DNA from: Escherichia coli
GTDB lineage: Bacteria; Pseudomonadota; Gammaproteobacteria; Enterobacterales; Enterobacteriaceae
Direction: 5' to 3' (one strand)
Assembly (NCBI RefSeq): GCF_009931435.1
Contig: NZ_CP043414.1
Length of the DNA stretch: 64,000 nt
Translations under genes and position numbers: made by a program
The notes under the pieces: generated by a model
Told to the model about the DNA's origin: nothing
What the model saw: only the letters and a program-made list of their open reading frames with translations
Database searches by the model: none
In this document: in pieces, positions 3,071 to 22,613 of the stretch
Layout: each line of letters begins with the position of its first letter
Position numbering within the stretch: the first letter of the stretch is position 1

Positions 3071-5031
<1,961 letters not shown>

Positions 5032-5209: not shown

Positions 5210-6502
5210 ATGCGCTATAATGGTTTAAATAATATGTTTTTCCCTCTTTGCCTGATTAACGATAACCACCCTGTCACAAGTCCATCACATACAAAGAAAA
5301 CAGAATCAGATAATTATAGCAAACATCATAAAGACACGTTAATTGACAATAAAGCCCTCTCTCTTTTCAAAATGGATGATCATGAAAAAGTGATAGGCTT
5401 GATTCAGAAAATGAAAAGAACTTATGATACTTTACCATCAGGAAAAATCACTAAAGAAACGGACAGGAAAATTCATAAATATTTTATAGATATAGCTTTA
5501 TACGCAAGTAATAAATATGACGATAGAATTACGAGAAGAGTTTACCTTAATAAAGATAAGGAAGTGTCAATTAAGGTAGTGTATTTTATAAATAATGTCA
5601 CTGTCCATAATAATACTATCGAAATCCCACAGACAGTAAATGGTGGTTACGATTTTTCACACCTTAGCCTGAAAGGTATCAGGATTAAAGATGAAGATTT
5701 ATCCAATTCGGATTTTGCAGGTTGCAGACTACAAAATGCTATTTTCCAGGGCTGTAATATGTATCAAACGAATTTTAATTTTGCCATAATGGAAAAAATA
5801 ATTTTTGATAATTGTATTCTCGATGACTCAAATTTCGCTCAGATAAAAATGACTGACGGAACTCTAAATGCATGCTCCGCTATGCATGTTGAATTCTTCA
5901 ATGCAACAATGATTAGAGCTAAAATTAAAAATACCTTCCTTGACTATTCAAATTTTTATATGGCGTACATGGCTGAGGTGAATCTTTATAAAGTAATAGC
6001 GCCATATGTTAATTTATTTAGAGCCGACCTTAGTTTCTCTAAACTCGATTTAATTAACTTTGAACATGCTAATCTTTCTCGCGTCAACCTGAACAAAGCA
6101 ACCCTCCAGAATATAAACTTAATTAATAGCAAACTCTTTTTTACGCGGCTGACAAATACGTTCCTCGAAATGGTTATATGTACCGATTCTAATATGGCTA
6201 ATGCTAATTTTAATAATGCCAATTTAAGCAATTGCCATTTCAACTGTTCTATTTTAACAAAAGCCTGGATGTTTAATACCCGTTTCTATCGGGTTAATTT
6301 CGATGAGGCTATCGTCCAGGGAATGGGCATATCCATTCTCCGTGGGGAGGATAATATTCCCATTAATAGTGATATCCTGATAACACTACAGCAACTCTTT
6401 GAAGAGGATTGTGCCACTCATACTGGCATGTCACAAACTGAGCATAATATTCAGGAAGTGTCTATGAATACCACTGAAGATACTATGCAATACGCAGATT
6501 GA
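5210..6502 (+). CDS. yjcF: Pentapeptide-repeat protein, 430 aa, AT-rich gene
   Basis: 430 aa; long run of pentapeptide-like repeats (…SNSDFAGCRLQNAIFQGCNMYQTNFNFAIMEKIIFDNCILDDSNFAQ…); position and size match K-12 yjcF; markedly lower GC than neighbours. Confidence 0.8.
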   Translation: MRYNGLNNMFFPLCLINDNHPVTSPSHTKKTESDNYSKHHKDTLIDNKALSLFKMDDHEKVIGLIQKMKRTYDTLPSGKITKETDRKIHKYFIDIALYASNKYDDRITRRVYLNKDKEVSIKVVYFINNVTVHNNTIEIPQTVNGGYDFSHLSLKGIRIKDEDLSNSDFAGCRLQNAIFQGCNMYQTNFNFAIMEKIIFDNCILDDSNFAQIKMTDGTLNACSAMHVEFFNATMIRAKIKNTFLDYSNFYMAYMAEVNLYKVIAPYVNLFRADLSFSKLDLINFEHANLSRVNLNKATLQNINLINSKLFFTRLTNTFLEMVICTDSNMANANFNNANLSNCHFNCSILTKAWMFNTRFYRVNFDEAIVQGMGISILRGEDNIPINSDILITLQQLFEEDCATHTGMSQTEHNIQEVSMNTTEDTMQYAD

Positions 6503-6592
6503 GATTAAGCCGAAGAATAGCCAATGAATTGACTTTAAAAGAGAGATACTCACGGACTTCTGACTTATTTATTTTAGAATCATGAATGTTAG

Positions 6593-6648
6593 CCCGAGGT
6601 AATCTGAAAAAGGTGCAAAAGATTGCACCTTTTTCAGATTACCTCGGG
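6593..6648. terminator. Perfect 26-bp stem hairpin between convergent yjcF and yjcE
   Basis: cccgaggtaatctgaaaaaggtgcaa / aaga loop / ttgcacctttttcagattacctcggg; arms exactly complementary. Confidence 0.6.
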
Positions 6649-6669
6649 CCTGGTTACGTCGCTTTCGGC

Positions 6670-8319: not shown

Positions 8320-8470
8320 GCGTTCCCTGTTTGCGATGTTTTTTTATGATCTGAGAAAGGCGTTATGCCTGAATTCTCATTTTTTCAGAATATCGCAAAA
8401 GCTCACACAATGTGCGGAGAAAATAAAAACGGGCAGCCATTGCCACCCGTTTTCAGAATCTTATTAAAGC

Positions 8471-9820
8471 TTAGATAGCCCAGCCGCCCGCATAGAAGGT
8501 CACCAGCGCCACGGCGATAACGACCGTACCGATGTTCAACTTGCGCCATTCGCCGGAAACCAGACGACCAATCACCAGAGTCGCGAAGCCGATCATGATG
8601 CCTGTTACGATGTTACAGGTCAGCACGATGAATACCGCCGTAACCAGACCCGCCATCGCATCAACAAAATCAGCAAAGTCGATTTTCGCCACGTTGCTCA
8701 GCATCAGCAGGCCAACGTACATCAGCGCTGGAGCCGTTGCGTACCCAGGAACGAGGTAAGAGAGTGGAGAGAGGAACAGAATCAGCAGGAACAACACGCC
8801 AACGGTGATAGCCGTCAGACCGGTTTTTCCGCCCGCCGCTGTACCCGCCGCAGACTCGATGTATACCGCTGCCGGTGCTGCCCCCACCAGACCAGAGAAA
8901 ACACTGCTCATGGAGTCGGTGGTCAGTGCTTTCCCGCCGTCGATAATTTGCCCGTCTTTATCCAGCAGGTTTGCCTGGCCCGCGACGGCCCGGATGGTTC
9001 CGGTGGCATCGAAAACAGCAGTCATCACCAGTGCCAGCACGCTCGGCAGAACCACAGGGTTCAGCGCGCCCATAATGTCCAGGCTGCCAATCAGTGAATT
9101 GCCGTTTTCATCGCTCAATGAAGGCATGGCGAAAACGCCAGAGAAGTGGACGTTAGGATCGAAGATCAAACCGACAATTGAGATACCGATAATGGTCAGC
9201 AGAATGCCACCAGGGACTTTCAGTTTTTCCAGGCCGATGATCACCGCCAGACCTACCAGTGACATAATCACCGGGAAGGTCGCGAAATCACCCAGCGCAA
9301 CGGGCAGACCATCAAGCGGGTTTTTAATCACCAGACCGACACCATTAGCGGCAATGAGCAGCAGGAAAAGACCGATACCGATCCCCGTGCCGTGCGCCAC
9401 ACCGTGCGGCAAGTTGCGCAAAATCCAGCTACGAATACCCGTGGCAGAAATTATCGTAAACAGCACACCCATCAGGAACACGGCACCCAGCGCGACAGGT
9501 ACGCTAATATGTTGCCCCAGCACCAGACTGAATGCGGTAAACGCCGTCAGGGAGATGGCGCAACCAATCGCCAACGGCAGATTAGCCCACAGACCCATCA
9601 CGATAGAACCGAGTCCGGCAACCAGACAGGTCGCAACGAAAACTGCCGCAGGCGGGAAGCCCGCTTTACCCAACATGCCTGGAACGACGATAACCGAGTA
9701 GACCATCGCCAGAAACGTTGTTAACCCGGCAACCACTTCCTGACGGACAGTGCTTCCACGTTGTGAAATTTTAAACCAGGCGTCGAGTGAACCGCCGGTA
9801 CGCGCTGATGGCGTAGACAT
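8471..9820 (-). CDS. ghxP: Guanine/hypoxanthine permease (NCS2/AzgA-like), 449 aa
   Basis: 449-aa membrane protein [50 protein letters not shown]...; synteny (K-12 yjcD/ghxP). Confidence 0.9.
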
Positions 9821-10234
9821 AAGAAAACATCCCCTGAGAGTTTAATTTTCGTCAAGATGCGTGGCGGACAATCCCCTGCCAGCGAAACGTTATCTTCCTG
9901 CTCCAGGTTTGCGACAAATTGGTGCGTCGCAAAAACGCAAACGTTTAGCTCCGCGCATACAAAACGGGTGGTAAAAAAAGCAAACGATTATCCGGCGATC
10001 ATAGCGGCTTTTTCAACCGAAGTTTGCTGCTTTTTTCTCTTTTATTGTCTTGACGATGAAAAACCAGGCAATTGATGCGCAAACGTTATCGTCGATGCGC
10101 AAGATTGCAGCGTTATCGAACCGTATACCGTTCAGGATTGCGATAAAAAATCGTCTGAGATGACAAAAATATTGCGGCTAAAAAGTGTACTTTTACACTG
10201 GCGAAGAAACGCCGGTAACATACAATTAAAGCAT

Positions 10235-10375
10235 CAACACCAACCGGAACCTCCACCACGTGCTCGAATGAGGTGTGTTGACGTCGGGGGAAACCCTCCT
10301 GTGTACCAGCGGGATAGAGAGAAAGACAAAGACCGGAAAACAAACTAAAGCGCCCTTGTGGCGCTTTAGTTTTGT
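10235..10375 (+). ncRNA. ryjA: Candidate small RNA at the K-12 ryjA position (placement by synteny only)
   Basis: K-12 carries a ~140-nt sRNA between soxR and ghxP, convergent with soxR. Here a hairpin plus T-run at 10347-10375 could end a plus-strand transcript. Sequence not verified against ryjA. Confidence 0.25.
10347..10367. terminator. Hairpin at soxR 3' end (bidirectional terminator candidate)
   Basis: aaagcgcc-cttgt-ggcgcttt with T-rich flanks on both strands, overlapping the soxR stop codon. Confidence 0.5.
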
Positions 10376-10830
10376 TCATCTTCCAGCAAGCGTGCGCCGG
10401 TACCTTCTTCTCCTAATCGGTCGCCCGGGTTACGCAACGGGCAATCACTGCGCGAAAGGCAGCCACAACCAATACATCCATCCAGTTCGTCACGCAGCGC
10501 CACTAAGGTATGAATGCGCCGATCCAACTCTTCTCGCCATTGGGACGAAAGCTGTTTCCACTCTTTCGCACTTAACGTATGCCCTTCGGGCAACACGCCA
10601 AATGCTTCACGAATGGTCGCCAGCGGAATGCCAATACGCTGAGCAATTTTGATGATTGCGACATATCGCAACACATCACGTTTATATCGCCGCTGATTGC
10701 CACTATTACGGATACTGCTAATCAACCCTTTGCTTTCATAGAAATGCAGCGCCGATACCGCCACACCGCTGCGTTTTGCCACTTCGCCGGGGGTTAGCAG
10801 CGCTTTAATGCGGGGTAATTTCTTTTCCAT
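10366..10830 (-). CDS. soxR: Redox-sensitive transcriptional activator SoxR (MerR family, [2Fe-2S]), 154 aa
   Basis: [37 protein letters not shown]...; C-terminal cysteine cluster [17 protein letters not shown]. Confidence 0.95.
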
Positions 10831-10841
10831 AAATCGCTTTA

Positions 10842-10859
10842 CCTCAAGTTAACTTGAGG
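10842..10859. promoter_or_regulatory. SoxR-binding palindrome in the soxS promoter
   Basis: Perfect 18-bp palindrome cctcaagttaacttgagg in the 85-bp soxR/soxS divergent spacer, at the position of the SoxR box in K-12. Confidence 0.85.
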
Positions 10860-10915
10860 AATTATACTCCCCAACAGATGAATTAACGAACTGAACACTG
10901 AAAAGAGGCAGATTT

Positions 10916-11239
10916 ATGTCCCATCAGAAAATTATTCAGGATCTTATCGCATGGATTGACGAGCATATTGACCAGCCGCTTAACATTGATGTCGTCGCAA
11001 AAAAATCAGGCTATTCAAAGTGGTACTTACAGCGGATGTTCCGCACGGTGACGCATCAGACACTTGGTGATTACATTCGCCAACGCCGCCTGTTACTGGC
11101 CGCCGTTGAGTTGCGCACCACCGAGCGTCCGATTTTTGATATCGCAATGGACCTTGGTTATGTCTCGCAGCAGACTTTTTCCCGCGTTTTCCGTCGGCAG
11201 TTTGATCGCACTCCCAGCGATTATCGCCACCGCCTGTAG
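10916..11239 (+). CDS. soxS: Superoxide-response regulator SoxS (AraC/XylS family), 107 aa
   Basis: MSHQKIIQDLIAWIDEHIDQPLNIDVVAKKSGYSKWYLQRMFRTVTHQTLGDYIRQRRLLLAAVELRTTERPIFDIAMDLGYVSQQTFSRVFRRQFDRTPSDYRHRL. Confidence 0.95.
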   Translation: MSHQKIIQDLIAWIDEHIDQPLNIDVVAKKSGYSKWYLQRMFRTVTHQTLGDYIRQRRLLLAAVELRTTERPIFDIAMDLGYVSQQTFSRVFRRQFDRTPSDYRHRL

Positions 11240-11241
11240 TT

Positions 11242-12828
11242 TTATTGCCTGCGCGTTAACCCCCGCGCGGGTAATTGCTCCATCCATTGCATAAACACCT
11301 GCGGCGGCATCGCCTTCGCAAAGAACCATCCCTGGCAATAACGCACGCCGCGTTTACGCAACCAGTTAACCTGATCCTCAGTTTCTACCCCTTCTGCGAT
11401 CGTTTTTAACCCCAGACTGTGCGCCAGCTCGATGATGTGTTCCGCAATCAAATGACTGGTTTTATGGGTGGTCAGCGTCTCAACAAACGATTTATCGATT
11501 TTCAAAATATCGACATTCAATGATTTAAGGTTATGCAAGTTAGAGTAGCCAATACCAAAATCATCAATTGCCACTTCGTAACCAGCCTGGCGGAAAGCCA
11601 GAATAATTGGTGTCATTTTGTCGACATCAAGAAATGCATGTTCAGTCACTTCAAATTTAATTTGCTGTGGACGCACCGCGTATTGCTCTGTTTTCTGATT
11701 GGTTCGCGCTATCAACCGTGACGTATGAAAATCGGAGGCCGACAGGTTAATAGAAACATAGCGATCGGCATGTGTTGCCAGGTACGCGCCCAGATCGCGG
11801 AAGACATTATCAATAACATAATCAGTTACCTGTCCGATCATTCCCTCCTTTTCTGCCAGCGGAATAAACTCTGCCGGATTCATTACTTGCCCCTGCTCAC
11901 CAGGCCAACGTAACAATGCTTCAGCGCCGATACATTTTTCTGTTTTGATATCGATTATTGGCTGGTAATAAAGGCAAAGTTGATGTTTTTCGAGGGCGCG
12001 TTGCAATTTGCGTTTGGGAGACAAATAGTTTTGTCGAATACGTAGCCAGAGTAATAACAGAACAAGACTCCCCAAAATACCGGCGGGTAACGCAAAAATA
12101 AGATGATTATAAAAATGCGCTATAAGACGTTGATATGAAGTCGCAACAATGGCTGCAATTGGGCGTTTTGTCGAATAAACTGTCGCATATAAATAGCCAT
12201 TTCTTTGTACGGTTAAATCATTCAAATGAATCAGTGGAGAAAACGTTGCTGCCGAGGCCTCGTTGCTTAACGAGAAAAAGGTTTTCGTTACCGTATCATA
12301 CACACCCCATTGCAATGTCGGATCATCAGACATCACTTCACTCCAGAAGAGAGGGTTGATGACCACCACATAATTTCCCCGCTGCATATAGGTCATTTTA
12401 TAGCCAGAGAAAAAAGGCGTATCGCGGTAATAATAGATAGAAACCTTAGGTTCACGCTTATAATCGGCCGGTGCAATCGTATAGCCGTTTACAGGCGCTA
12501 TCAGCGATGAGCATAAAAAATGGTTATCACGGGCATAGATCAATTCATTAATATAAAGATAGCCACGAATAATATTCAACATTCGCTTTTGATGGGCTGG
12601 AGTGCAAACTTGCCCCTGATAGCGTTCTGCTGCATCGCTCACTAAATCTGCCTGGCGAATGACCAGCTCGGATTTATCCAGCGCCAGCTGAGCAAAAGTT
12701 TGGAGCTGACTATTCACTTCTGATTTTGCCCAAAGGAAGGCAATCCATAGCGACAGTATGATGGGAAAGAGAACTAAAAAGATAATGCCCGGCAACGCCA
12801 GTAATTGGTGTCGTGCACGATGACTCAT
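11242..12828 (-). CDS. pdeC: c-di-GMP phosphodiesterase (CSS sensor domain plus EAL domain), about 528 aa
   Basis: Two TM segments flanking a periplasmic domain, then EAL domain (…EALLRWP…, …[27 protein letters not shown]…). Start set at [10 protein letters not shown] (track ORF starts 3 codons upstream). Stop lies 2 nt from soxS stop (convergent). Confidence 0.9.
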
Positions 12829-13257
12829 TGCTATCAATTTCCTGCCTGTTTATACCCGGTCATTGCAAGGCGAGAACCCTGGTTATCGACGTCTTTAGAT
12901 AAATCTTACGGTATAAATAGCACTTTTGCCTGATTTGAAATTGATACCTTTTTAATCGTCACCTGAATAAAAATAATTCATTGATATTCAAAATTAATTT
13001 TCTACAGGAATACAGAGGCGGCGGGAAGATATACCCTTAATGCCCCTGAAAAACCACATAATCTGTACAGCAATAAAAGTCACGTCCTAATATGGCTAAC
13101 AAACAATCAATTGTGATATAGTTCACAAAATTAATGAAACAAAAAGAGTGTTTCATTTTTGTGTTCTGCAAGCCCCGCGATAGCCAGAGTGTACCACGCC
13201 TCCCGTGAACAACGCCGCGCTGTCCAGGGCATCGGCTCTTTTCAGAGGAATTGTTTG

Positions 13258-13539
13258 ATGGCTACCCTCACCACTGGCGTGGTTCTTCTTCGCTGGCAAC
13301 TTCTTAGTGCCGTAATGATGTTTCTGGCCAGCACACTCAACATCCGTTTTCGCAAATCAGATTATATTGGTCTTGCGGTGATTAGCAGCGGCCTGGGCGT
13401 TGTTTCTGCCTGCTGGTTCGCTACCGGATTGCTCGGTATTACCATGATGGATATTACCGCTATCTGGCACAACATTGAGTCGGTGATGGTGGAAGCCATA
13501 AATCAGGCGCCACCTGAATGGCCAATGATTATGACCTGA
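13258..13539 (+). CDS. yjcB: Small inner-membrane protein YjcB, 93 aa
   Basis: MATLTTGVVLLRWQLLSAVMMFLASTLNIRF... preceded by gaggaa ribosome-binding site; track ORF begins 33 codons upstream. Confidence 0.7.
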   Translation: MATLTTGVVLLRWQLLSAVMMFLASTLNIRFRKSDYIGLAVISSGLGVVSACWFATGLLGITMMDITAIWHNIESVMVEAINQAPPEWPMIMT

Positions 13540-13548
13540 TGGCGGGAG

Positions 13549-13580
13549 TTTGTGCAGGATCCCCGGTGATTCTGCACAAA
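13549..13580. terminator. Inverted repeat between convergent yjcB and island porin gene
   Basis: tttgtgcag ... ctgcacaaa (9-bp arms, 14-nt loop); weak terminator candidate at the left island junction. Confidence 0.4.
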
Positions 13581-13594
13581 CAAATGATTAAGAC

Positions 13595-14956
13595 CTACAG
13601 TTTGATTGTAATCTGAGTTCCCACAACCCAGGCGTCGTCGATTTCACTCACCCCACCGGGATCAATCAGCAACTGCACATTGGGTCGCAATGTTAACCAC
13701 GGCGTCACCACAAAACTGTAATGCAATTCTGCCGCATACTCAGCGTCTCTTACTGGCGTCCAGGCGGGATTATCATAATCATCAAGACCCTTTTTATCAT
13801 TGAGCAATTGCGCCCGTCTGGCTACTTTACTGTTTTCGTGCATTTTGCTGACGCCAAAGCCAATGTAATCCTGCCCCCGACCGGAAAATGGCCCTTTATA
13901 AATAGCGCCAATTTGCGTCTGGTAATCCATTGTCGCAGTATCCCGATCATTCATCGCCAGATGCCAGAACAGAGAAAGGCCACCACGAGGAGAACGGGGA
14001 TCAGCAGTCACTTGCTGGAGTAAGTAGATCCAGCCACCGTAACGCCCATCGTGAGTCGCCGGGGGACGTTGGCTCGTAACGTAGTCATCGCCTTCTGCAT
14101 CCTTCAGGACGTCACTGGCTTTTGCTGTGTTATACCAGGCTCCTACTTTCCAGGCACCCGGAAGTTTATTCGCACCCAGCGTTGGTGTATACCCAAATTC
14201 CATAAGGTACATATTTCCTAATCTTCCAGTATTATCCAACTGGAAACTGCCGCTTCGCGTCGCATAATTTGGGTTATACATAAACGCGCCGGTCTGCAAA
14301 TAAACTTGCGGTGTAAAATTATAACGTAACCTGGCCCCCCACTGACCAATCGGTGTGTTATACCAGACTCCCGCACCATGACCTGCCAACGAACCACAGA
14401 GGGAAAGGTTCTGGAAATAACAACCATTGTTATCGAAGTCTTCGCCAACCGGCATTAATCCTAACTTTAAATCAATCGTTTTTGCATACCATGATTGACG
14501 ATACCAGAATTGCGCGGCATGCCAGGTTTGACCCCGGCCATAGTTACTGTTTACCGTCGAGCCAATCACTGGGGCTCGAGGATCCTGAATTCTGTCGCTG
14601 GTAAGATCGCGGCCGTTACGATCGATAACAGAGACTTTAAACTCTCCATCCGTGATACCCGCAATTTTTTGCAGATCAAAATCGGCACCGATAATATACT
14701 GGTCGCTATATCGCGCCGTCCGATCCTTGTTATAACCGCCTGAAATATTCGATGTCACCATCGAGCCATATTCCAGAGTAAAATCATATCCTTTGTTTTT
14801 TAACTCACTACGCACTCCATTCCAATCTCCAGCCATATATTTTCCGGTTGAGGAAAAAGGTAACTCATTGGCTAACGAACCAAATGGGAACATCAGTATC
14901 ATCAGGAAAATATAATTTTCCCGTATAGAATGATCCATATTATTTATCCTTTGCAA
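13595..14956 (-). CDS. Accessory island gene 1: outer-membrane porin-like protein (OprB/carbohydrate-selective or OprD-like; family uncertain), 453 aa or shorter
   Basis: Signal-peptide-like N-terminus (…FLMILMFPFGSLA|NELP…); mature part rich in Gly/Tyr/Asn/aromatic residues with alternating hydrophobicity typical of beta-barrel porins; N-terminal GDWNGVRSELKNKGYDF…NISGG resembles the OprB-family start as I recall it. True start may be the internal MDHS. Confidence 0.6.
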   Translation of the reverse strand: MQRINNMDHSIRENYIFLMILMFPFGSLANELPFSSTGKYMAGDWNGVRSELKNKGYDFTLEYGSMVTSNISGGYNKDRTARYSDQYIIGADFDLQKIAGITDGEFKVSVIDRNGRDLTSDRIQDPRAPVIGSTVNSNYGRGQTWHAAQFWYRQSWYAKTIDLKLGLMPVGEDFDNNGCYFQNLSLCGSLAGHGAGVWYNTPIGQWGARLRYNFTPQVYLQTGAFMYNPNYATRSGSFQLDNTGRLGNMYLMEFGYTPTLGANKLPGAWKVGAWYNTAKASDVLKDAEGDDYVTSQRPPATHDGRYGGWIYLLQQVTADPRSPRGGLSLFWHLAMNDRDTATMDYQTQIGAIYKGPFSGRGQDYIGFGVSKMHENSKVARRAQLLNDKKGLDDYDNPAWTPVRDAEYAAELHYSFVVTPWLTLRPNVQLLIDPGGVSEIDDAWVVGTQITIKL

Positions 14957-15060
14957 TCCGAATATAACATTCAGAGAAGCGCTACTGGCAAATATTTCTT
15001 AATGCTGGTGAAACACAGAAATTCTCTGGCAGGCCGATCCTTTCTTCCCGGTCAGTACGG

Positions 15061-16527
15061 CTACGGCGAAAGCTCTTCCAGTGATTTTCCCTTCGTTTCA
15101 ATAGCGAACAAATAGGTAACCAGGCCGCCTATTAACGCGATGACTGCGAACACAATAAAAACAAAGCGGATCCCAAAACCAGAAACAATGAATCCCACCA
15201 GCAACGGTCCAACGGAAGAGCCAGCCCGCAACCAGGCACTGGAAAATGCCGTTCCAATCGCTCTCAGGCGAGTGGGGTATAGCTCTGCAGAGTAGAGATA
15301 AAGAGAGAAGGCAATGGTCTGGAGAATGGCATACGTCATACTACCGAAAATAAGGATTTCAATGGCAGATTTGGCTCCGAAAATACAAAGAGTCACTAAC
15401 GGGATAATGGCCAGTAAATAAGCCCAGGTATACCAGCATTTTCTTCCAATACGATCGATAAGCAGTGCACAAATTACCGACGCAAAAACTCCACAGGAGG
15501 AAGTAATCCAACCATAAGCCAGACTGGTTTCCAGTGGTAAGTGAAAAAGCGTTTTATACATGGTAGGAAACCAGGTGATCATACCATTGTTCACCGTATA
15601 AACGGTCAGCCATAGTCCCCATAACATAAACGTGCGTGATTTATAGATGCCGGAAAATAGTTCTTTTACGCCACCTGCAGGTTCCTTTTGCACAACTGCA
15701 GGATTAATCACCGGCTCAGGTAATTCCATTCCTCGCTGCAGCGCTTCTTTCTCAAACGCCGCAACGACTTTCTCAGCCTGAACATGGCGACCTTTCGCTG
15801 TTAACCAGCGTGGAGACTCAGGCATTAACCAGCGTAACGGAACCGTCAATGCCGAAGGGATAAGACCTATCAAAAACATCACTTTCCAGCCGTAAAGCGG
15901 AACAAGAAAATAGCCTACAAGACCAGCAAACATCATACCGATCGGAAAAATCACCTCGTAGAGTAAAAAAAAGCGGCCACGTTTTTTTGCTCCGATAAAT
16001 TCATTGATATAAGCGCTGGCAACCGGAACTTCTGCCCCTATTCCTAATCCTTGCAGGAAACGGATAACCAGAATCGACCATCCATTCCAGGCAAACAGGC
16101 AAGCGGCATCCATCGCGACGAACATCACAATGGTGATACGCAACACGCCAATGCGGCCAATTTTTTCTGCCAGAGAGCCAAAAAAGAGTGCGCCGCAGAG
16201 CTGCCCAACATAGCTTGCGGCAATGATCAGCCCGATGAAGGTTGGTGTTAATCCCCATTCCTGAGTGAGTTGCGGTAGCGCAAAAGCTATCGCGATAATG
16301 GTGTAAGCATCAAAGAATGTCGATAAACCCACCACTACACGAATAGCTAAAAGACGCCTGGTGACAGGGAGTCGTTCGAGCCTGGCAAGCAGCGTTGCGG
16401 GATCGCCTTCCCGCGGACTGGCAATAATACTTTCAGAAGTAATAACCTGAGTTGACATAGCGATATCCTGTTGATTGATTCGCAAGACAACGAACTGCGC
16501 CAAACCCAGCGGCTGGCAGCTATTCAC
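15061..16527 (-). CDS. Accessory island gene 2: MFS transporter (sugar-porter / aromatic-acid:H+ symporter-like), about 465-488 aa
   Basis: 12-TM profile; MFS signature motifs (…GRIGVLRITI…, …LMPESPRWL…). Track start is GTG at 16527; MSTQVITSES at about 16458 is an alternative start. Confidence 0.8.
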   Translation of the reverse strand: MNSCQPLGLAQFVVLRINQQDIAMSTQVITSESIIASPREGDPATLLARLERLPVTRRLLAIRVVVGLSTFFDAYTIIAIAFALPQLTQEWGLTPTFIGLIIAASYVGQLCGALFFGSLAEKIGRIGVLRITIVMFVAMDAACLFAWNGWSILVIRFLQGLGIGAEVPVASAYINEFIGAKKRGRFFLLYEVIFPIGMMFAGLVGYFLVPLYGWKVMFLIGLIPSALTVPLRWLMPESPRWLTAKGRHVQAEKVVAAFEKEALQRGMELPEPVINPAVVQKEPAGGVKELFSGIYKSRTFMLWGLWLTVYTVNNGMITWFPTMYKTLFHLPLETSLAYGWITSSCGVFASVICALLIDRIGRKCWYTWAYLLAIIPLVTLCIFGAKSAIEILIFGSMTYAILQTIAFSLYLYSAELYPTRLRAIGTAFSSAWLRAGSSVGPLLVGFIVSGFGIRFVFIVFAVIALIGGLVTYLFAIETKGKSLEELSP

Positions 16528-16565
16528 TTGCAGTTATTTGAGAATCTATCTGCATAAAAACCATA

Positions 16566-16593
16566 ATGAAAACGTTTCTGCAATCGTTTTCAT
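16566..16593. promoter_or_regulatory. Operator-like inverted repeat atgaaaacg-N10-cgttttcat in the divergent MFS / regulator promoter region
   Basis: Perfect 9-bp arms with 10-bp spacer; embedded tgcaatcgttttca fits the LacI/cre-type pattern TGnAAnCGnTTnCA; followed by tataat at 16595-16600. Second copy at 18068-18093. Confidence 0.45.
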
Positions 16594-16885
16594 GTATAAT
16601 TATCGTCATTAGTTTCCCGGGGGATGTCAATTCGACTCAGCGAATATTTGTTAATCAGTTCACATTCCGGATATCTGCTTAGAGAAAAAATGTGATGTTG
16701 TTCTTAAAGCCATCAAGAAAGCTCGCGACAAAGATCGGATACGTACACGCTCAGGACGTAGTAAACATCCAACATTTCTTTGTACATACAAAAAATTGCC
16801 GTACCATTTTACAAGGCCAATCATTACGCACTGGCCTTTTGAATGACGGGACCTTTCAGGTAATTAATACATACGGGAGTCAGCT

Positions 16886-17914
16886 ATGAGCCTGGAAAGC
16901 GAAGAAAAAGACCAAACAGAAAAAAAGCTGATCACCATGCGTGACGTGGCGAATGCTGCCGGGGTGAGTATTTCTACCGTTTCGCGTATCCTGGATGAAA
17001 GATTACCGCCATCTAAAAGCGCTTCTGCCGAAAAAGTACGCCAGGTCGCACGCGAATTGGGCTATCGTCGGGATTATGTTGCCTCCAGTCTCCGTCGCGG
17101 CGGCACCGGGACACTTGGTGTATTAGTTCCACGCCTGACTGATGCAGTTACTGCAATGTTGTTTGAAGAAATCGCTAAAGCAGCGTCGCATCGTGGTTAC
17201 TTCGCAGTGGTCGCGACTTGTGGAGACGATCCCCAGCAAGAGCGAGAATCTGTAGAATCACTTCTCGACAGGCGGGTCGACGGCTTGATTATGTCAACCT
17301 GTCGCCTCGGCGATCCCCTACCGCAAACTTTGCGTGAAAGGGATATTCCCCATGTGCTCGCCCTGCGTACTGATGGTGTTAGCCCATCATCCATCGGCGA
17401 TGATGAACTGGGTGGTTACCTTGCTACTCGCCATCTTATTGATTTAGGACATAAAAACATCGGTTTGATAGGTGGCCCGGATTTTGCCTCAAATGCGCTT
17501 AATCGCCGTAAAGGTTTTGAAAAGGCAATGCGCGAAGCCGGACTAACTATACAGCCGCAATGGTGCTGTTCATCAGACTTTAACATCCAGTCGGGAGAAG
17601 AAGCAGGGATGAAACTCCTCAGAACGACTCCTGCTCCAACCGCTATTTTTGCGGTAAATGACGAAATAGCGATTGGTGTGGTTGCTGCCGCTCACCATTT
17701 GGGGATAACAATCGGCCAAGAGTTGTCGTTAGTGGGTTATAACGACATTCCTCTGGTCAGCCGACTTCCTGTGGCGCTCACTTCCGTAAGAACGCCGCTA
17801 GAGCATATCGCCAGTAATGCTGTGGACATGTTGATTAATGCCGACAGTGGCCGCTCTTTGCGTACAACCATACCGACTTTAATACCAAGAAAATCAACGA
17901 GTTCACCCAAGTAA
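16886..17914 (+). CDS. Accessory island gene 3: LacI-family transcriptional regulator, about 325-342 aa
   Basis: N-terminal HTH (…ITMRDVANAAGVSISTVSRILDE…) followed by a periplasmic-binding-protein-like sugar-binding domain; alternative start at MRDVA (about 16937). Confidence 0.85.
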   Translation: MSLESEEKDQTEKKLITMRDVANAAGVSISTVSRILDERLPPSKSASAEKVRQVARELGYRRDYVASSLRRGGTGTLGVLVPRLTDAVTAMLFEEIAKAASHRGYFAVVATCGDDPQQERESVESLLDRRVDGLIMSTCRLGDPLPQTLRERDIPHVLALRTDGVSPSSIGDDELGGYLATRHLIDLGHKNIGLIGGPDFASNALNRRKGFEKAMREAGLTIQPQWCCSSDFNIQSGEEAGMKLLRTTPAPTAIFAVNDEIAIGVVAAAHHLGITIGQELSLVGYNDIPLVSRLPVALTSVRTPLEHIASNAVDMLINADSGRSLRTTIPTLIPRKSTSSPK

Positions 17915-17923
17915 AGCCTGTCT

Positions 17924-17962
17924 TTCATTTGCTGCAAAACCCGGGGTTTTGCAGCAAATGAA
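17924..17962. other. 39-bp near-perfect palindrome just downstream of the regulator gene
   Basis: ttcatttgctgcaaaaccc-g-gggttttgcagcaaatgaa (19-bp arms); no U-tract follows, so either an unusual terminator or a protein-binding site. Confidence 0.4.
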
Positions 17963-18067
17963 GAACATTAAAATTCTTATATTCCTTCCCTGATTTTGTG
18001 ATCCCTGCTGCATTTTTCAACAACTGTTGATTGACAACCTCATTCATCAGGTTCAAATTCAATCTTG

Positions 18068-18093
18068 TGAAAACGATTGCAAGAACGTTTTCA
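18068..18093. promoter_or_regulatory. Operator-like inverted repeat tgaaaacg-N10-cgttttca upstream of the DapA-like/FAH/Dcu genes
   Basis: Perfect 8-bp arms, 10-bp spacer, about 60-80 bp upstream of the ATG at 18151; first arm plus spacer (tgaaaacgattgca) matches TGnAAnCGnTTnCA exactly. Same architecture as 16566-16593. Confidence 0.45.
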
Positions 18094-18150
18094 TTTCGTT
18101 TCTTGCATTGTCCACATAATAAAAAAGACTAAATTATTAAGGAGATAGTC

Positions 18151-19080
18151 ATGATCAATATAGATCTCAGAGGTTTGACCCCGGCACCGGTTACCCCTTT
18201 CAATCGTGATGGTAGTATTGATTTTGATGCTATCCAGCGTCTGGGAAGCTGGCTGGGTAGTATTGACGGCGTTAAAGGGTTAGTTGTACTTGGTCATGCT
18301 GGTGAAGGTACTTTCCTGACACAAGATGAACAGGCCGCTGTGATCCGTGCTTTCGTAAAATCCGTAGATGGCAAGCTGCCTATCATTGCCGGTATCACCG
18401 GTGAAGGGACTGACGTCGCTGCTAAAGAAGCCAAACGTGCCGTGGAAGCTGGTGCTTCAGCAGGCCTGTTATATCCTTCTCATGGATGGTTGCGTTTCGG
18501 CTACCAGGACGGCGCACCACAAGATCGCTACCGCGTTGTCTATGAAGAAAGCGGCCTGCCCTTGATCCTGTTTCAGTATCCTGATGTGACTAAAGCAACC
18601 TATAATCTGCAAACACTGCTGGATATTTCCGCACAACCCGGTGTTTTTGCTATGAAAAATGGTGTACGCAATATGCGTCGTTGGGATACAGAGATCCCGG
18701 TTATCCGCCGCGAGCGTCCGGAATTACAGATCCTCAGTTGCCATGATGAATATCTGGTACACACTGCTTTTGACGTAGATGGTTTCCTTGTCGGCTATGG
18801 CAATATTGCGCCAGAACCGCTCATCGAGATGATCAAAGCAGGTAAAGCTGGCGATTATAAAAAAGCACGCGCGATACATGACCGTCTGCTGCCAGTAACG
18901 AAGTGCGTATATCATCGCGGTTCCCATATGGAAGGAACCGTCGCCCTGAAACACGCGCTGGTTGCTCGCGGTATTCTCGAACATGCTACTGTTCGTTCAC
19001 CGCTATTACCGCTGGAGCATGGTGCCGAAGAAGAAATTCATGCTGCTATGCGTGCAGCTGACCTGCCGCGCGTTAAATAA
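18151..19080 (+). CDS. Accessory island gene 4: DapA/NAL-family class I aldolase or dehydratase (dihydrodipicolinate synthase-like), 309 aa
   Basis: Family-typical layout: …TPAPVTPFNRDGSIDFDAIQRLGSWL…GLVVLGHAGEGTFLTQDEQ…, Tyr in …LFQYPDVT…, candidate Schiff-base Lys in …VFAMKNGV…. Good ribosome-binding site (aaggag) upstream. Confidence 0.8.
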   Translation: MINIDLRGLTPAPVTPFNRDGSIDFDAIQRLGSWLGSIDGVKGLVVLGHAGEGTFLTQDEQAAVIRAFVKSVDGKLPIIAGITGEGTDVAAKEAKRAVEAGASAGLLYPSHGWLRFGYQDGAPQDRYRVVYEESGLPLILFQYPDVTKATYNLQTLLDISAQPGVFAMKNGVRNMRRWDTEIPVIRRERPELQILSCHDEYLVHTAFDVDGFLVGYGNIAPEPLIEMIKAGKAGDYKKARAIHDRLLPVTKCVYHRGSHMEGTVALKHALVARGILEHATVRSPLLPLEHGAEEEIHAAMRAADLPRVK

Positions 19081-19351
19081 CTCCGGCAACAGAAAAGAAA
19101 GCAGTATTCTAAATCACTACTCCTGATGGTTATTGCTTTCTTTCACTTAATGCCACATTAACGACGACAGCCACCTTTACATACAATCATAAGGTGGCTC
19201 ATTCTCTTCATCAGCCTATTGTCGCGCCGGGCTATTTTGAATAACTCAGATGTAATAATGATGAGATTGTTAGAATCCAGGCCATAGTACAACGTCTCAG
19301 AAGCCAGAAGGTAAGTAATGCCCTGATCATGGCATGAATTGAAGGAACATC

Positions 19352-20233
19352 ATGAAACTGCTCAGTTTTTCTGTAGATAACGAAGAAAAGTATGGTGCCA
19401 TCGTATCCGATGGAATTATTGACTTGCATAAATTATTTCCCGAACTTCCCGACCTGAAATCATACGTTGCCAGTCAACATTCATTAGACATCGCTTTGTT
19501 TGCAGGTAAAAAAGCCGATTACCATCAGGGCGAAGTGACTTTTCTGCCCGTAATTACTCGACCAAATAAAATCATCTGCGCAGGTATGAACTACCGGGAA
19601 AAATGTGCAGAATTTAATGAAAAAGGTGGCGATCCGACGCTATTTATCCGTTTTGCTGATACTCAGACGGGCCACCGTTGTGGGTTAATAAAACCGACCC
19701 TGAGTAATGAATTTGATTATGAAGGCGAACTGGCGGTAATTATAGGTCGCCAGGGTTCTCACATTCCTGCTGATGAAGCATTTAACTATATTGCCGGGTA
19801 TAGCTGTTATATGGATGGTTCCGTTCGTGACTGGCAGCACAGCTGGTTTACTGCCGGTAAAAATTGGCCTGCAACAGGTGGATTCGGGCCATGGATGGTT
19901 ACGCCAGATGAAATTCCTGACCCTCAAAATCTGAATATTATCACCCGTCTTAACGGCAAGGAAGTGCAGAATGATAATACACATAGCATGCTGCACTCTA
20001 TTAAGGATTTGATTGCCTATATCAGTACTTTCACCACCTTATCGCCCGGTGACGTGATATTAACAGGCTCTCCGGGTGGGGTCGGTAAAAAACGCTCTCC
20101 ACCGCTCTTCTTGTGGCCTGGTGATATTGTTGAAGTTGAGATTTCAAGAATTGGTTGCCTGATAAATCACATTATAAGCGACAACGAAGAGTATCCGGTC
20201 ACTTTACAATCAGAACTCGATAACGCCTGCTGA
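19352..20233 (+). CDS. Accessory island gene 5: fumarylacetoacetate hydrolase (FAH) family protein (hydratase/decarboxylase/hydrolase type), 293 aa
   Basis: FAH-fold core …FDYEGELAVIIGRQGSHIPADEAFNYIAGYSCYMDGSVRDWQ… and …GDVILTGSPGGVG…. Confidence 0.8.
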   Translation: MKLLSFSVDNEEKYGAIVSDGIIDLHKLFPELPDLKSYVASQHSLDIALFAGKKADYHQGEVTFLPVITRPNKIICAGMNYREKCAEFNEKGGDPTLFIRFADTQTGHRCGLIKPTLSNEFDYEGELAVIIGRQGSHIPADEAFNYIAGYSCYMDGSVRDWQHSWFTAGKNWPATGGFGPWMVTPDEIPDPQNLNIITRLNGKEVQNDNTHSMLHSIKDLIAYISTFTTLSPGDVILTGSPGGVGKKRSPPLFLWPGDIVEVEISRIGCLINHIISDNEEYPVTLQSELDNAC

Positions 20234-20320
20234 TTATAAAGTTAACGAAAAATTCGGATAGATAGCCTGGCACTTTAGAAATTAACATTAAGTGGTAGGC
20301 AATCCTTTCAAGGAGTATGC

Positions 20321-21610
20321 GTGATGATCATGCTGCAATTTATTATCGTTTTATTTTTCCTGTTTTTAGGAATGCGTATTGGCGGCATTGGTGTCGGATT
20401 TGCTGGTGGGGCAGGTGTCATCGCCTTGTGCGCCCTTGGTGCAACACCCGGCGATTTACCGATGCTGGTGATCGTTTTTATTATGGTTGTCATCATTGCA
20501 ATTGCTGCAATGCAAGAAGCGGGTGGGATTGACTATCTGGTTGGTTTAACCGAAAAAATGCTTCGCCGCTACCCTCGCCTGCTGGTAATAACTGCACCTC
20601 TGTCTACATGGCTATTAACCATGATGGCCAGTACCGGTCAGGTGTCATTTGCCTGTATGCCGGTTATTGTGGGTGTCGCGAAGGAAAATCAACTTCGTCC
20701 CACCCGGGCGTTGGCGCTTTCGGTTACCGCTTCATTGTTAGGTATTGTTGCCTCGCCTATCTCTGCCGCCGTTATTTTCTTTTCAGGCATCCTGGAAAAA
20801 AATCACCAGGGATGGGGATATTTGCAACTCATTGCCGTTTCTATACCGGCTACTTTATTAGCGTTGATTTGTACTTCGCTTTTTTACCTGTTCTGGGACA
20901 AACTTCGCCAGAATGATCAATTACCCGTACATATGGCTGTAACGAAAAAATCTCTGTCTGCGCCTGTGGTACAGGGAGCTCGTCGCTCAGTACTAATATT
21001 TATTTTTGGCCTAGTTGTAGTACTTTTTTACGCCCTCATTGCCAGTCCGAAAACAGGCGTTATCATACATCCCGTTTTAAATAGTGGACAGGTCCGTATT
21101 TCAGTAATGATGGCTGTAGCACTCGCCATTGTTATGTTTTGCCGGGTAAATGTGAATAACATTCCTGCGACATCAGTTTTTAAAACAGGGATGACGTCAT
21201 GCATCTGTATTTTAGGTGTCGCCTGGCTCGGTTCTACATTCATGGATAGTAACCAGGTGTGGTTTCAAAGCATGATTTCCGGATATTTATTAGATTCACC
21301 ATTGTTGCTGGCAATTATTATTATGCTGGCGTCATGTTTTCTATATTCTCAGGCGGCCTCCACCAAAATACTTTTTCCTATTGCATTAAGTATGGGTATC
21401 GCCCCTGCCACTCTGGTCGCCTGCTTTCCAGCAACGGCTTCTCTTTTTATTTTACCTAACTACCCCACATTATTAGCCGCCGTGACTCTTGATGATACGG
21501 GGTCAACGAAATTAGGAAATCGAATAATCGATCATCCGTTTATTGTTCCTGGTTTAATGGCAACCGTGTTATCGATACTCTTCGCCGCGGGATTCGCATT
21601 GTTTATTTAA
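20321..21610 (+). CDS. Accessory island gene 6: Dcu-family (DcuA/DcuB-like) C4-dicarboxylate transporter, about 429 aa
   Basis: Close resemblance along the whole length to E. coli DcuA as recalled (…LGMRIGGIGVGFAGGAGV…, …AMQEAGGIDYLV…, …TKLGNRIIDHPFIVPG…); about 10-12 TM segments. Confidence 0.85.
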   Translation: MMIMLQFIIVLFFLFLGMRIGGIGVGFAGGAGVIALCALGATPGDLPMLVIVFIMVVIIAIAAMQEAGGIDYLVGLTEKMLRRYPRLLVITAPLSTWLLTMMASTGQVSFACMPVIVGVAKENQLRPTRALALSVTASLLGIVASPISAAVIFFSGILEKNHQGWGYLQLIAVSIPATLLALICTSLFYLFWDKLRQNDQLPVHMAVTKKSLSAPVVQGARRSVLIFIFGLVVVLFYALIASPKTGVIIHPVLNSGQVRISVMMAVALAIVMFCRVNVNNIPATSVFKTGMTSCICILGVAWLGSTFMDSNQVWFQSMISGYLLDSPLLLAIIIMLASCFLYSQAASTKILFPIALSMGIAPATLVACFPATASLFILPNYPTLLAAVTLDDTGSTKLGNRIIDHPFIVPGLMATVLSILFAAGFALFI

Positions 21611-21698
21611 AATGTATATGGCAGGAGTCAATATCATCAGACTCATAGTTCACATAAAACAAACTGCAGCATCATCAACATCACTCAGGTATTAAAAA

Positions 21699-21720
21699 TC
21701 CCCAACCAGCCTGTTGGGGA
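21699..21720. terminator. Hairpin between island and ssb (likely ssb terminator, bidirectional)
   Basis: tccccaac-cagcct-gttgggga; A-run upstream (a T-run on the ssb strand) and T-rich sequence downstream. Confidence 0.55.
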
Positions 21721-21822
21721 TAAATATGTATTTTTCAATGTCCCGAGTAGCTACCGGGCAGATATCAATCTGAGGCTGTGGCTAACGCACACTGGCGGTA
21801 ACCACCTGAACCAAAAGAAATC

Positions 21823-22359
21823 TTAGAACGGAATGTCGTCATCAAAATCCATCGGCGGCTCATTAGACGGTGCTGCCGGAGCAGACTGCTGCGGGCGAGA
21901 CTGCGCGCCGCCGCTGAACTGATTGCCGCCCTGCGGCTGCTGAGGCTGACCCCAACCGCCCTGCGGCTGACCACCACCGATATTGCCACCTGCAGGAGCG
22001 CCACCACCCTGACGACCACCCAGCATCTGCATGGTGCCGCCAACGTTTACCACAACTTCAGTGGTGTAGCGATCTTGACCGGATTGATCGGTCCATTTGC
22101 GGGTACGCAGCTGACCTTCGATATAAACCTGAGAACCTTTACGCAGATATTCGCTGGCCACTTCTGCCAGTTTGCCGAACAGCACAACGCGGTGCCATTC
22201 AGTCTGCTCTTTCATCTCGCCGGTCGCTTTATCACGCCAGGATTCGGAAGTAGCCAGCGTAATGTTGGCAACTGCGCCACCATTTGGCATGTAGCGTACT
22301 TCCGGGTCCTGACCCAGATTACCAACGAGAATAACCTTGTTTACGCCTCTGCTGGCCAT
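21823..22359 (-). CDS. ssb: Single-stranded DNA-binding protein, 178 aa
   Basis: [44 protein letters not shown]…, Gly/Gln-rich tail ending DFDDDIPF. Confidence 0.97.
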
Positions 22360-22512
22360 GTTCGTGTCTCCTGAAAAAAAATCGTTCTGAATAAGTGTAA
22401 ACGCGCGATTGTACCATTACCAATAGCGCTTTTACTATGTTGTGACCTCGGTTCAGGGAAACAAACCTGGCCAGACATTGTTACACAACACTCCGGGTAA
22501 TGCATTCCAATA

Positions 22513-22528
22513 CTGTATATTCATTCAG
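22513..22528. promoter_or_regulatory. LexA box shared by divergent ssb / uvrA promoters
   Basis: ctgtatattcattcag (CTGT-N8-CAG) within tactgtatattcattcaggtca, about 90 bp upstream of uvrA. Confidence 0.8.
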
Positions 22529-22613
22529 GTCAATTTGTGTCATAATTAACCGTTTGTGATCGCCGGTAGCACCATGCCACCGGGCAAAAAAGCGTTTAAT
22601 CCGGGAAAGGTGA

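Follow-up and report, generated by a model that had tools for sequence, protein, structure and literature searches.

A probable catabolic genomic island between yjcB and ssb of Escherichia coli with a putative class I lyase of an exceptionally conserved family

The DNA studied here is a stretch of 64,000 nucleotides from Escherichia coli (NCBI RefSeq assembly GCF_009931435.1, contig NZ_CP043414.1), referred to below as the window. Between the core genes yjcB and ssb it carries an island of 8,277 bp (13541-21817) without counterpart in strain K-12, which is probably a horizontally acquired, LacI-repressed module for the uptake and cleavage of one organic acid or a few related ones. A DHDPS/NAL-superfamily protein, referred to as the enzyme, recurs with carriers and regulators in many other bacteria and is conserved to an unusual degree. 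The genes of the island and its flanks are as follows.

13258-13539, plus strand: yjcB, left flanking gene, a divergent allele travelling with the island
13595-14938, minus strand: OprB-family carbohydrate-selective porin, 447 amino acids (Pfam PF04966; "carbohydrate porin" in RefSeq)
15061-16458, minus strand: MFS carrier, 465 amino acids
16886-17914, plus strand: LacI-family repressor, 342 amino acids (LacI-type NCBIfam matches, all under cut-off)
18151-19080, plus strand: DHDPS/NAL-superfamily enzyme, 309 amino acids (PF00701)
19352-20233, plus strand: FAH-family enzyme, 293 amino acids (PF01557)
20324-21610, plus strand: DcuA-like C4-dicarboxylate-family carrier, 428 amino acids (NCBIfam NF006927)
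21823-22359, minus strand: ssb, right flanking gene

A preliminary description of this DNA, made from the sequence alone, had placed six open reading frames (ORFs) of these families at these positions. The ORF list and the RefSeq gene calls of a carrier genome agreed with it, and profile matches bore out the assignments to OprB, MFS, LacI, DHDPS, FAH and Dcu. When the window was compared by BLAST with the ssb-yjcB region of K-12, homology stopped at 13540 and restarted at 21818, within 5 bp of the edges proposed earlier, and the insert was found to stand where K-12 has a 94-bp spacer. In K-12 MG1655, ssb and yjcB are convergent neighbours, as the preliminary description had stated, and the gap between them is 98 bp rather than the 0.3 kb or so given there. 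The K-12 spacer, including its own hairpin, is not kept in the window. The G+C content was 41-52% in the island versus 51-58% in ssb/uvrA. Two hairpins lie at the edges.

13548-13581: hairpin between the convergent yjcB and porin genes, 17-nt arms, 88% complementary, absent from the K-12 spacer
21698-21721: G+C-rich hairpin between the convergent Dcu-family gene and ssb, 9-bp stem with a T-run on the ssb strand, terminator-like, absent from the K-12 spacer

Both had been noticed before and ascribed to the flanking core genes; the hairpins exist, but that attribution did not hold, as both are located inside the insert and differ from the hairpin of the K-12 spacer. The island DNA contained no tRNA, neither its ORFs nor the RefSeq calls included an integrase or transposase, and no direct repeat was common to the two junctions, all as previously claimed. 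The insert thus shows none of the marks of an integrative mobile element (integrase or recombinase, tRNA or att target, flanking repeats). The long intergenic regions gave no Rfam match up to E=1. Among the island proteins, PADLOC recorded a single 31-residue helix-turn-helix match of the LacI protein, which was regarded as trivial, and no defence system was recognized.

Of 5,426 complete E. coli genomes, 12 had the island, in each case on the chromosome and with at least 99.8% identity. A chimeric query composed of both flanks showed yjcB and ssb to be no more than about 1.1 kb apart in 4,993 of the complete genomes. The island is therefore accessory and not core, as had been suspected. A probable mode of spread emerged from comparison of carriers. 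Their islands were 99.8-99.9% identical to that of the window, their flanks just 97.5-97.8%. Base-by-base comparison with the carrier strain SCU-301 revealed six mismatches within 8.6 kb and 2-5% divergence on either side, delimiting the following block.

13228-21861: recombined block (yjcB allele, island and last ~40 bp of ssb), near-identical in carriers

Over 6.5 kb on the left side of the island, the best match among the 5,426 genomes reached 98.4%. A near-identical block inside diverged backbones points to spread within Escherichia by homologous recombination in flanking core DNA; the island would move within this genus as a block with its own yjcB allele, without an integrase. The 3' end of the yjcB gene in the window was 83-88% identical to K-12, with an adjoining backbone of about 97%, because the whole of yjcB lies in the shared block. 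The island would originally have come from a lineage with a diverged yjcB allele. The exact YjcB protein was encountered on 861 contigs, all from Escherichia; for the exact island protein sequences the count ranged from about 500 to at least 1,000 contigs. Proteins with 90% identity or more to YjcB or the island proteins came exclusively from Escherichia (RefSeq label "MULTISPECIES"), and no donor was found. In other genera the module DNA was 69-75% identical to the island, with saturated synonymous sites, and in none of the genera compared was the module located beside ssb, yjcB, uvrA or pdeC. The backbone of the window (7000-13227 and 21862-27200) was about 96-97% identical to K-12 and closely matched by none of the 5,426 genomes, which indicates that the source strain belongs to a poorly represented or divergent Escherichia lineage.

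The insertion site itself is already known. It is E. coli integration hotspot 39, for which a "yjcB-ssb defense island" has been named (PMC11728103), and in Salmonella Typhimurium the same two genes border SPI-4 (PMC12607715), in agreement with the preliminary description, which had equated the site with the SPI-4 hotspot. No paper describing the metabolic occupant was found. At the same site, E. coli AVS0247 and C288 carry an element of about 12 kb (locus 2408-13841 in both) with an AbiGi-family protein, Avs4 and two hypothetical proteins. This element has two adjacent tyrosine recombinases beside ssb and is a defence island distinct from the Detocs/dGTPase island of PMC11728103. All these occupants share the insertion site between the convergent genes ssb and yjcB. 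The others bring integrases and defence genes, or a type I secretion system and an adhesin, whereas the island described here consists of metabolism genes only and lacks mobility genes. An IS200C-family element was seen in the short yjcB-ssb spacer of E. coli 2022N21-074-17 (NZ_CM125674.1, 3187677-3189686), a further sign that this spacer tolerates insertions.

The enzyme and all its relatives matched PF00701, and the NCBIfam models for dapA, nanA and KdgD aligned over residues 5-303. None of these models reached its cut-off: the dapA model TIGR00674 scored 127.8 bits (cut-off 206.15), the NanA models NF003164 and TIGR00683 83.4 and 62 bits (cut-offs 281 and 382), and the KdgD-type model TIGR03249 67 bits (cut-off 374), and a 2,5-dioxopentanoate dehydrogenase was not linked. 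The best solved relative, of the DapA type, scored 106 bits; DapA is also the best-scoring NCBIfam relative, although the identity to E. coli DapA is just 23%, the gene context is catabolic and the enzyme occurs in fungi without a diaminopimelate pathway. Arg138 of DapA is replaced by Val146, and Thr44/Thr45 by His49/Ala50. The enzyme therefore falls outside the dihydrodipicolinate synthases, sialate lyases and KdgD enzymes. Probably it still acts on a 2-oxo acid through a Schiff base, to judge from conserved sequence features: the strand-6 Lys169 is invariant and aligns with K161 of DapA and K165 of NanA, and the Asp191-Glu192 pair of NanA is kept as D199-E200 (CHDEY). An AlphaFold2 model predicted a DHDPS/NAL-type barrel, i.e. 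a (beta/alpha)8 fold with a C-terminal helical domain (pLDDT 77, pTM 0.82), its quality being only moderate because the alignment is almost without diversity. Foldseek returned TM scores of 0.79-0.83 to NAL/DHDPS structures at 22-29% identity, all of them generic matches. No characterised pathway could be assigned to the island, as the preliminary description had also conceded; none emerged from the literature, and all specific NCBIfam equivalogs scored under cut-off. In the full-text literature, including PMC9162365, 10.1101/072470 and PMC5153877, no paper on the subfamily, the island or a transfer to fungi was found.

To see how the enzyme is embedded elsewhere, one genome per species was scanned for the pattern in 100,044 bacterial species, which yielded about 460 loci with a relative of the enzyme. 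All ORFs within 6 kb were clustered for the best 80 of these loci, representing 80 species. The DHDPS-like enzyme was encoded in 80/80 loci. A homologous MFS carrier accompanied it in 61/80. Regulators were of the LysR (47/80), LacI (20/80, Actinobacteria included) and IclR types (10/80), and porins of the OmpC type (26/80) or related to an Acinetobacter porin (12/80). FAH was found in 12/80 loci, an Nramp-like carrier in 9/80, a TctC-type binding protein in 7/80 and Dcu in 7/80, all of the latter in Enterobacterales. An operon-restricted analysis added TAXI-TRAP systems in 3-4 loci. No second enzyme recurred beside the DHDPS-like gene across the 80 loci, the operon-restricted analysis included, and an aldehyde dehydrogenase was present in none of the 80 neighbourhoods. 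The dehydratase or dehydrogenase that the preliminary description had expected as a missing partner did not materialize, FAH and Dcu themselves being optional. The stable core of the module consists of a regulator, the DHDPS/NAL-superfamily enzyme, an inner-membrane carboxylate carrier and an outer-membrane porin, i.e. essentially of one enzyme and its carriers. One enzyme is evidently enough to feed the substrate into central metabolism. Dcu, TTT and TRAP systems transport carboxylates, and their association with the enzyme indicates that the substrate is an organic acid.

The complete six-gene layout was also seen in Raoultella terrigena, Klebsiella indica, K. michiganensis, Enterobacillus tribolii and Citrobacter youngae. 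Variants included a module without porin and with a second MFS carrier in Dickeya, LacI-enzyme-FAH-Dcu in Providencia, MFS with LacI-enzyme-Dcu in Pantoea, and a KdgM porin, LacI, the enzyme and an Nramp-type carrier in K. variicola. In K. variicola the Nramp-type gene was split into two overlapping ORFs of 131 and 305 amino acids in two independent assemblies (locus 11063-12353) and may be frameshifted and decaying; it is followed by a gene for a 223-residue protein without family match. Pantoea sp. SGAir0183, on a single 4.37-Mb contig, has two enzyme records of 310 and 309 amino acids (90% and 89% identical to the E. coli enzyme), which represent either a duplicate gene or a double call of one gene. 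A gene for a methyl-accepting chemotaxis protein was part of the module in seven species (7/80 loci; Serratia, Symbiopectobacterium, Trinickia, Paraburkholderia, Robbsia and a Rhodocyclaceae metagenome-assembled genome). This linkage suggests that the substrate of the module is also a chemoattractant.

Regulation of the module was approached through its promoter regions. A motif of 26 nt, TGAAAACG-N10-CGTTTTCA, is built from two 14-bp boxes in tandem, both of the LacI-family type, TGnAAACGnTTnCA, and occurs without mismatch exactly twice in the window. The features concerned are these.

16567-16592: putative operator O1, dual LacI-type box TGAAAACGTTTCTGCAATCGTTTTCA, in the divergent promoter region of the MFS and LacI genes
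17919-17967: hairpin straight after the LacI stop codon, 24-bp arms, 92% complementary, 1-nt loop
18031-18093, plus strand: promoter/operator region of the enzyme operon (sequence read directly)
18031-18036, plus strand: perfect TTGACA box just before O2
18068-18093: putative operator O2, TGAAAACGATTGCAAGAACGTTTTCA, a perfect motif match 58 bp before the ATG of the enzyme gene

Two perfect dual boxes of the palindromic TGnAAnCGnTTnCA type are accordingly candidates for operators at the regulated promoters. The position of O1 was kept in 10 enterobacterial loci. The same dual box was located about 50-90 bp upstream of the enzyme gene in Providencia, Dickeya, Pantoea, Raoultella, Klebsiella, Enterobacillus, Citrobacter and Serratia, and also in Gilliamella, Marinobacter and the actinobacteria Rhodococcus and Agrococcus. 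Enterobacterial loci have it at the MFS/LacI promoter as well, and in K. variicola it precedes the gene for the KdgM-family porin. Judged from this conservation, a single LacI-controlled regulon would be the natural reading. The LacI-type motif at both promoters is in line with the earlier proposal of a self-contained module with a dedicated repressor. The repressor has the N-terminal helix-turn-helix and the periplasmic-binding-protein-like domain of its family, matched RbsR, PurR, CytR and GalS over its full length and had RbsR, PurR and CcpA as nearest solved structures; its NCBIfam matches to RbsR, CytR, PurR and GntR were all under cut-off, and its orthologues carry PF00356 and PF13377. 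The hairpin at 17919-17967 sits between lacI and the promoter of the enzyme operon, and a T-run is not obvious.

The most conspicuous property of the enzyme is its conservation. Across some 460 bacterial loci and the Pezizomycotina its members were 77-95% identical. Identity to the E. coli enzyme was 94-95% in Dickeya and Raoultella, 93% in Providencia, 82-85% in Acinetobacter, Paraburkholderia and Cupriavidus, 79-80% in Rhodococcus and Agrococcus, 86% in Pyricularia oryzae (264/307, no gaps) and 84% in Aspergillus brasiliensis. Single clusters at 90% identity spanned Aspergillus, Penicillium and Talaromyces, or Colletotrichum, Apiospora and Pestalotiopsis, and among 1.84 billion representatives at 50% identity the family collapsed into one full-length representative. 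The next full-length relatives were at most 39% identical and have the unusual motifs in common with it. Derivation of a function from these sister DHDPS-like proteins (37-39% identical) was rejected, as they are unannotated and located on short contigs.

Recent promiscuous transfer was considered as the cause of the high identity and rejected, because synonymous divergence (dS) was saturated in every pair (at least 1.8 or not computable) and the partner proteins were 2-5 times more diverged at non-synonymous sites. Against Raoultella, the non-synonymous divergence (dN) was 0.037 for the enzyme, 0.081 for the MFS carrier, 0.099 for LacI, 0.137 for Dcu, 0.171 for the porin and 0.198 for FAH. 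Against Rhodococcus it was 0.17 for the enzyme and 0.41 for LacI, and against Paraburkholderia 0.14 for the enzyme and 0.57 for the MFS carrier, while dN of the enzyme against fungi leveled off at 0.135-0.140. With transporter and regulator diverged normally, the high identity of the enzyme implies a very strong constraint on nearly every residue.

The fungal gene is single-exon. It is located beside an MFS gene and a Zn2Cys6 regulator gene in Aspergillus niger and beside a divergent MFS gene in Colletotrichum; these fungal MFS genes share no homology with the MFS partner in bacteria. Fungi thus follow the same logic, with the enzyme beside an MFS carrier and a Zn2Cys6 regulator. In a neighbour-joining tree all 22 of the 22 sampled fungal sequences formed one clade, nested in the bacteria and sister to the enterobacterial clade with the E. 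coli gene. This topology, provisional because the tree was computed without support values, suggests a single ancient transfer from a bacterium to Pezizomycotina. Members from Apiospora, Neoarthrinium, Pestalotiopsis and Seiridium carry the annotation "methylthioadenosine phosphorylase", almost certainly an error of annotation transfer.

The remaining proteins of the island were compared with known families. The porin matched PF04966 with E=1.5e-91 (residues 79-452 against model positions 2-371 of 372) and is a member of the OprB family, with orthologues of 65-76% identity at the same position in Raoultella, Klebsiella, Enterobacillus and Citrobacter. The families nearest to the MFS carrier were AAHS, SLC22, SV2 and sugar porter, all under cut-off. 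The Dcu-family carrier exceeded the cut-offs of NF006927 (452.4 bits, cut-off 369) and TIGR00770 (433.7 bits, cut-off 331). It was 45% identical to K-12 DcuA over the full length and 30% to DcuB. It belongs to the same family as DcuA, the aspartate/C4-dicarboxylate carrier of E. coli, but is a third, island-borne paralogue that occurs only with the module, in Enterobacterales.

The FAH protein has the PF01557 domain and the Glu-x-Glu...Asp metal-binding motif (YEGE...D in the translation) and belongs to the family. It aligned over the full length with HpcE/HpaG, 2,4-diketo-3-deoxy-L-rhamnonate hydrolase and the oxaloacetate decarboxylases YisK and FAHD1. The specific models demand scores well above those of the island protein, which reached 164 bits with its best match, 2,4-didehydro-3-deoxy-L-rhamnonate hydrolase (NF053535, cut-off 500), and 154 bits with the HpaG model TIGR02303 (cut-off 276); the best solved match was HpcE (165 bits). 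The 4-dehydrogenase that feeds the diketo-acid hydrolases is absent. Divergence of FAH was ordinary, with 77% identity to Dickeya and 62% to a Salmonella paralogue. Inference of a function from the latter was rejected, as it resides in an unrelated aconitase-type cluster. This cluster of Salmonella enterica (locus 6567-12792) encodes an MFS carrier, large and small aconitase-like subunits, FAH, an alpha/beta-hydrolase and a LysR regulator and adjoins an insertion sequence element and a fimbrial operon; the FAH paralogue has 895 cluster members. FAH and Dcu accompany the enzyme mainly in Enterobacterales, which would fit a module extended to a related dicarboxylic acid or to anaerobic product exchange.

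From these data the following mechanism is proposed. The OprB porin would admit the acid through the outer membrane and the MFS carrier would take it across the inner one; the acid or a derivative would release the repressor. The enzyme would form a Schiff base between Lys169 and the 2-oxo group of the substrate, a 2-oxo, keto-deoxy or hydroxy-oxo acid being the likeliest compound to be cleaved to pyruvate in this way. The second product, a small aldehyde or acid, would be handled by housekeeping metabolism, which would explain why no second enzyme is needed in most lineages. In Enterobacterales, an FAH-family enzyme and a DcuA-like carrier would extend the module. FAH probably has a related dicarboxylic 2-oxo or 2,4-dioxo acid as its substrate and works either ahead of the lyase step or after it, and import of that acid or exchange of a C4-dicarboxylate product is the probable task of the Dcu-like carrier.

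Several observations weigh against this mechanism. The carboxylate-binding GTTGE/GSTGE motif of the superfamily reads GHAGE in the enzyme, and the catalytic tyrosine (Y133 of DapA, Y137 of NanA) aligns with Phe141, an invariant Tyr143 following two residues on (FQYP). The combination of a strand-5 tyrosine with G-[ST]-[ST]-G-E is thus not found, and the pLDDT around Tyr143 is low; indeed, the AlphaFold2 model is weakest (pLDDT <50) exactly in the family-specific invariant loops. Invariant loops of the enzyme cover residues 110-121, 173-177, 197-205 and 254-268. In view of these departures from the characterised catalytic set, the chemistry may not be a simple retro-aldol cleavage. The MFS carrier resembles SLC22, SV2 and sugar porters and not a defined acid carrier. 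In the E. coli island no operator precedes the porin, FAH or Dcu genes, so that their co-regulation would depend on operon position alone, and the roles given here to FAH and Dcu are guesses based on their families. An experimental datum for any member of the family was not found in the full-text literature.

A special case of the proposed mechanism is that the enzyme, as a lyase, would split an acidic keto-deoxy sugar (sialic-acid/KDO/KDN/KDG type) into pyruvate and a neutral sugar, with the island acting as a scavenging system for such sugars. We regard this as unlikely. The nearest folds are those of N-acetylneuraminate lyases, and the resemblance to NanA and the nan regulon (NanR-NanA-NanT with the porin NanC) extends to the Schiff-base lysine, the Asp-Glu pair and the overall logic of a repressor, one class I lyase, an MFS symporter and a dedicated outer-membrane channel. 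The OprB porin is carbohydrate-selective, a porin of the KdgM/NanC family stands under the same operator in K. variicola, the LacI regulators resemble the sugar-responsive RbsR, GalS and GntR, and the MFS carrier matched sugar-porter and sialate-symporter models. Also in its favour, no gene for a KDO aldolase was found in the searchable literature. The enzyme is, however, only 24% identical to NanA, scored far under the NanA cut-offs (83 vs 281; 62 vs 382) and has GHAGE for GSTGE, without its Ser-Thr, and Phe at the position of Tyr137. The island lacks NanK/NanE-type enzymes for the second product and has a regulator of the LacI and not the GntR type, and in none of the 80 loci was a kinase, epimerase or isomerase for the released sugar linked. 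The Dcu, TTT and TAXI-TRAP carriers and FAH would suit di- or tricarboxylates better, and the many invariant Arg and His residues suggest a polyanionic ligand.

Alternatively, the module could degrade an unsaturated or hydroxylated C5-C7 2-oxo-dicarboxylic acid as in the lower part of aromatic meta-cleavage. FAH would then act as an HpcE/HpcG-like decarboxylase, isomerase, hydratase or 2,4-dioxo-acid hydrolase, the DHDPS-like aldolase would form pyruvate and succinate semialdehyde, malonate semialdehyde or glyoxylate, and the Dcu-like carrier would be the importer. That HpcE is the best solved match of FAH (165 bits), followed by related hydratases and hydrolases, and that the C-terminal domain of HpaG scored 154 bits in NCBIfam are consistent with this view. 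So are the dicarboxylate or tricarboxylate types of the carriers, the presence of the enzyme in the anaerobic dicarboxylate/citrate fermenters Propionivibrio dicarboxylicus and Formivibrio citricus, and a weak match to TIGR02313, a DHDPS-family aldolase recruited to exactly that role. But with FAH missing from 68/80 loci and Dcu from 73/80, the enzyme must work without them. All specific models scored far under cut-off, ring-cleavage or upstream genes were not linked, and intermediates of this kind are not known as abundant free nutrients. This route, too, appears improbable.

A dehydratase, decarboxylase or deaminase of the Schiff-base type, comparable to KdgD, L-2-keto-3-deoxyarabinonate dehydratase or pyrroline-4-hydroxy-2-carboxylate deaminase, instead of an aldolase, is quite unlikely; in that case the chemistry may even be new to the superfamily. 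Schiff-base dehydratases, decarboxylases and deaminases do belong to the DHDPS/NAL superfamily, GHAGE, the shifted tyrosine and several invariant His, Cys and Arg residues suggest a non-standard mechanism, and a multi-step reaction within a single site could account for the extreme conservation. KdgD models, on the other hand, gave 67-74 bits against cut-offs of 278-374. The known members of the dehydratase type form 2,5-dioxopentanoate and have an aldehyde dehydrogenase gene linked to them; such a gene was never located beside the enzyme gene in the 80 loci. The YagE/YjhH aldolases and KdgD-type dehydratases are likewise catabolic DHDPS-family enzymes from accessory clusters with an MFS carrier and a regulator, but these clusters always contain a dehydratase forming the keto-deoxy acid or an aldehyde dehydrogenase, and no such partner recurs here; the enzyme scored 71 bits against YagE and 67 bits against KdgD. 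Finally, it is scarcely credible that the gene is a spare dapA of lysine biosynthesis, as the automatic annotation of many members as "4-hydroxy-tetrahydrodipicolinate synthase" would have it, or that the island is defence or virulence cargo like the defence islands and SPI-4 held by the hotspot elsewhere, since the dapA model reached 128 bits against 206, Arg138 and Thr44/Thr45 are replaced, the gene always stands with carriers, porins and catabolic-type regulators and is also common in fungi, whose lysine comes from the aminoadipate route, and PADLOC returned nothing besides the trivial helix-turn-helix match.

The preferred reading of the island as an uptake and cleavage module can be taken further, and we do so tentatively, as the broader claim is possible but not one we would lean on. 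The enzyme may found an unrecognised hyper-conserved family (at least 77% identity, no relative between 77% and 39%, about 460 loci and most Pezizomycotina) with a catalytic apparatus (GHAGE, FQYP, HGWLRFG, CHDEY) unlike that of characterised DHDPS/NAL enzymes. It would convert a widespread, unrecognised organic acid to central metabolites in one step, possibly by chemistry new to the superfamily, and would have entered the ancestor of the filamentous ascomycetes by a single bacterial transfer.

Two further observations concern neighbouring DNA. The alignment to K-12 breaks at window 27203-27406, where about 200 bp stand against about 980 bp containing yjbS in K-12, and SCU-301 has an annotated truncated hypothetical pseudogene at the equivalent place. 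In AVS0247 an accessory block by aphA (locus 19525-28599) encodes a sensor kinase, a sigma-54-dependent regulator, an Ldh-family oxidoreductase, a DASS anion symporter, sucD/sucC paralogues and an lpdA paralogue; K-12 is without the block there.

For E. coli, these results provide a clear case of a metabolic island in a hotspot otherwise used by defence islands and SPI-4. It appears to spread between lineages purely by homologous recombination, carrying along a diverged allele of the flanking core gene, and may mark a niche-specific nutrient for a few commensals of humans, primates and pigs. Beyond the preliminary description, the analysis adds the spread by recombination together with the yjcB allele, an operator that defines the putative regulon and a single orphan enzyme of exceptional conservation. 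For a catabolic enzyme outside the housekeeping set, 86% identity between E. coli and the rice blast fungus and 80% to Rhodococcus is highly unusual. The enzyme occurs in soil, plant-associated, marine, insect-gut and clinical bacteria (Acinetobacter pittii, A. nosocomialis, Klebsiella, Burkholderia) and in most filamentous ascomycetes, a distribution that points to a common natural substrate missing from current pathway maps. The question of the substrate is directly testable thanks to the conserved operator, the dedicated carriers and an architecture with a single enzyme, and the enzyme family behind this catabolic genomic island with its class I lyase merits experimental attention.

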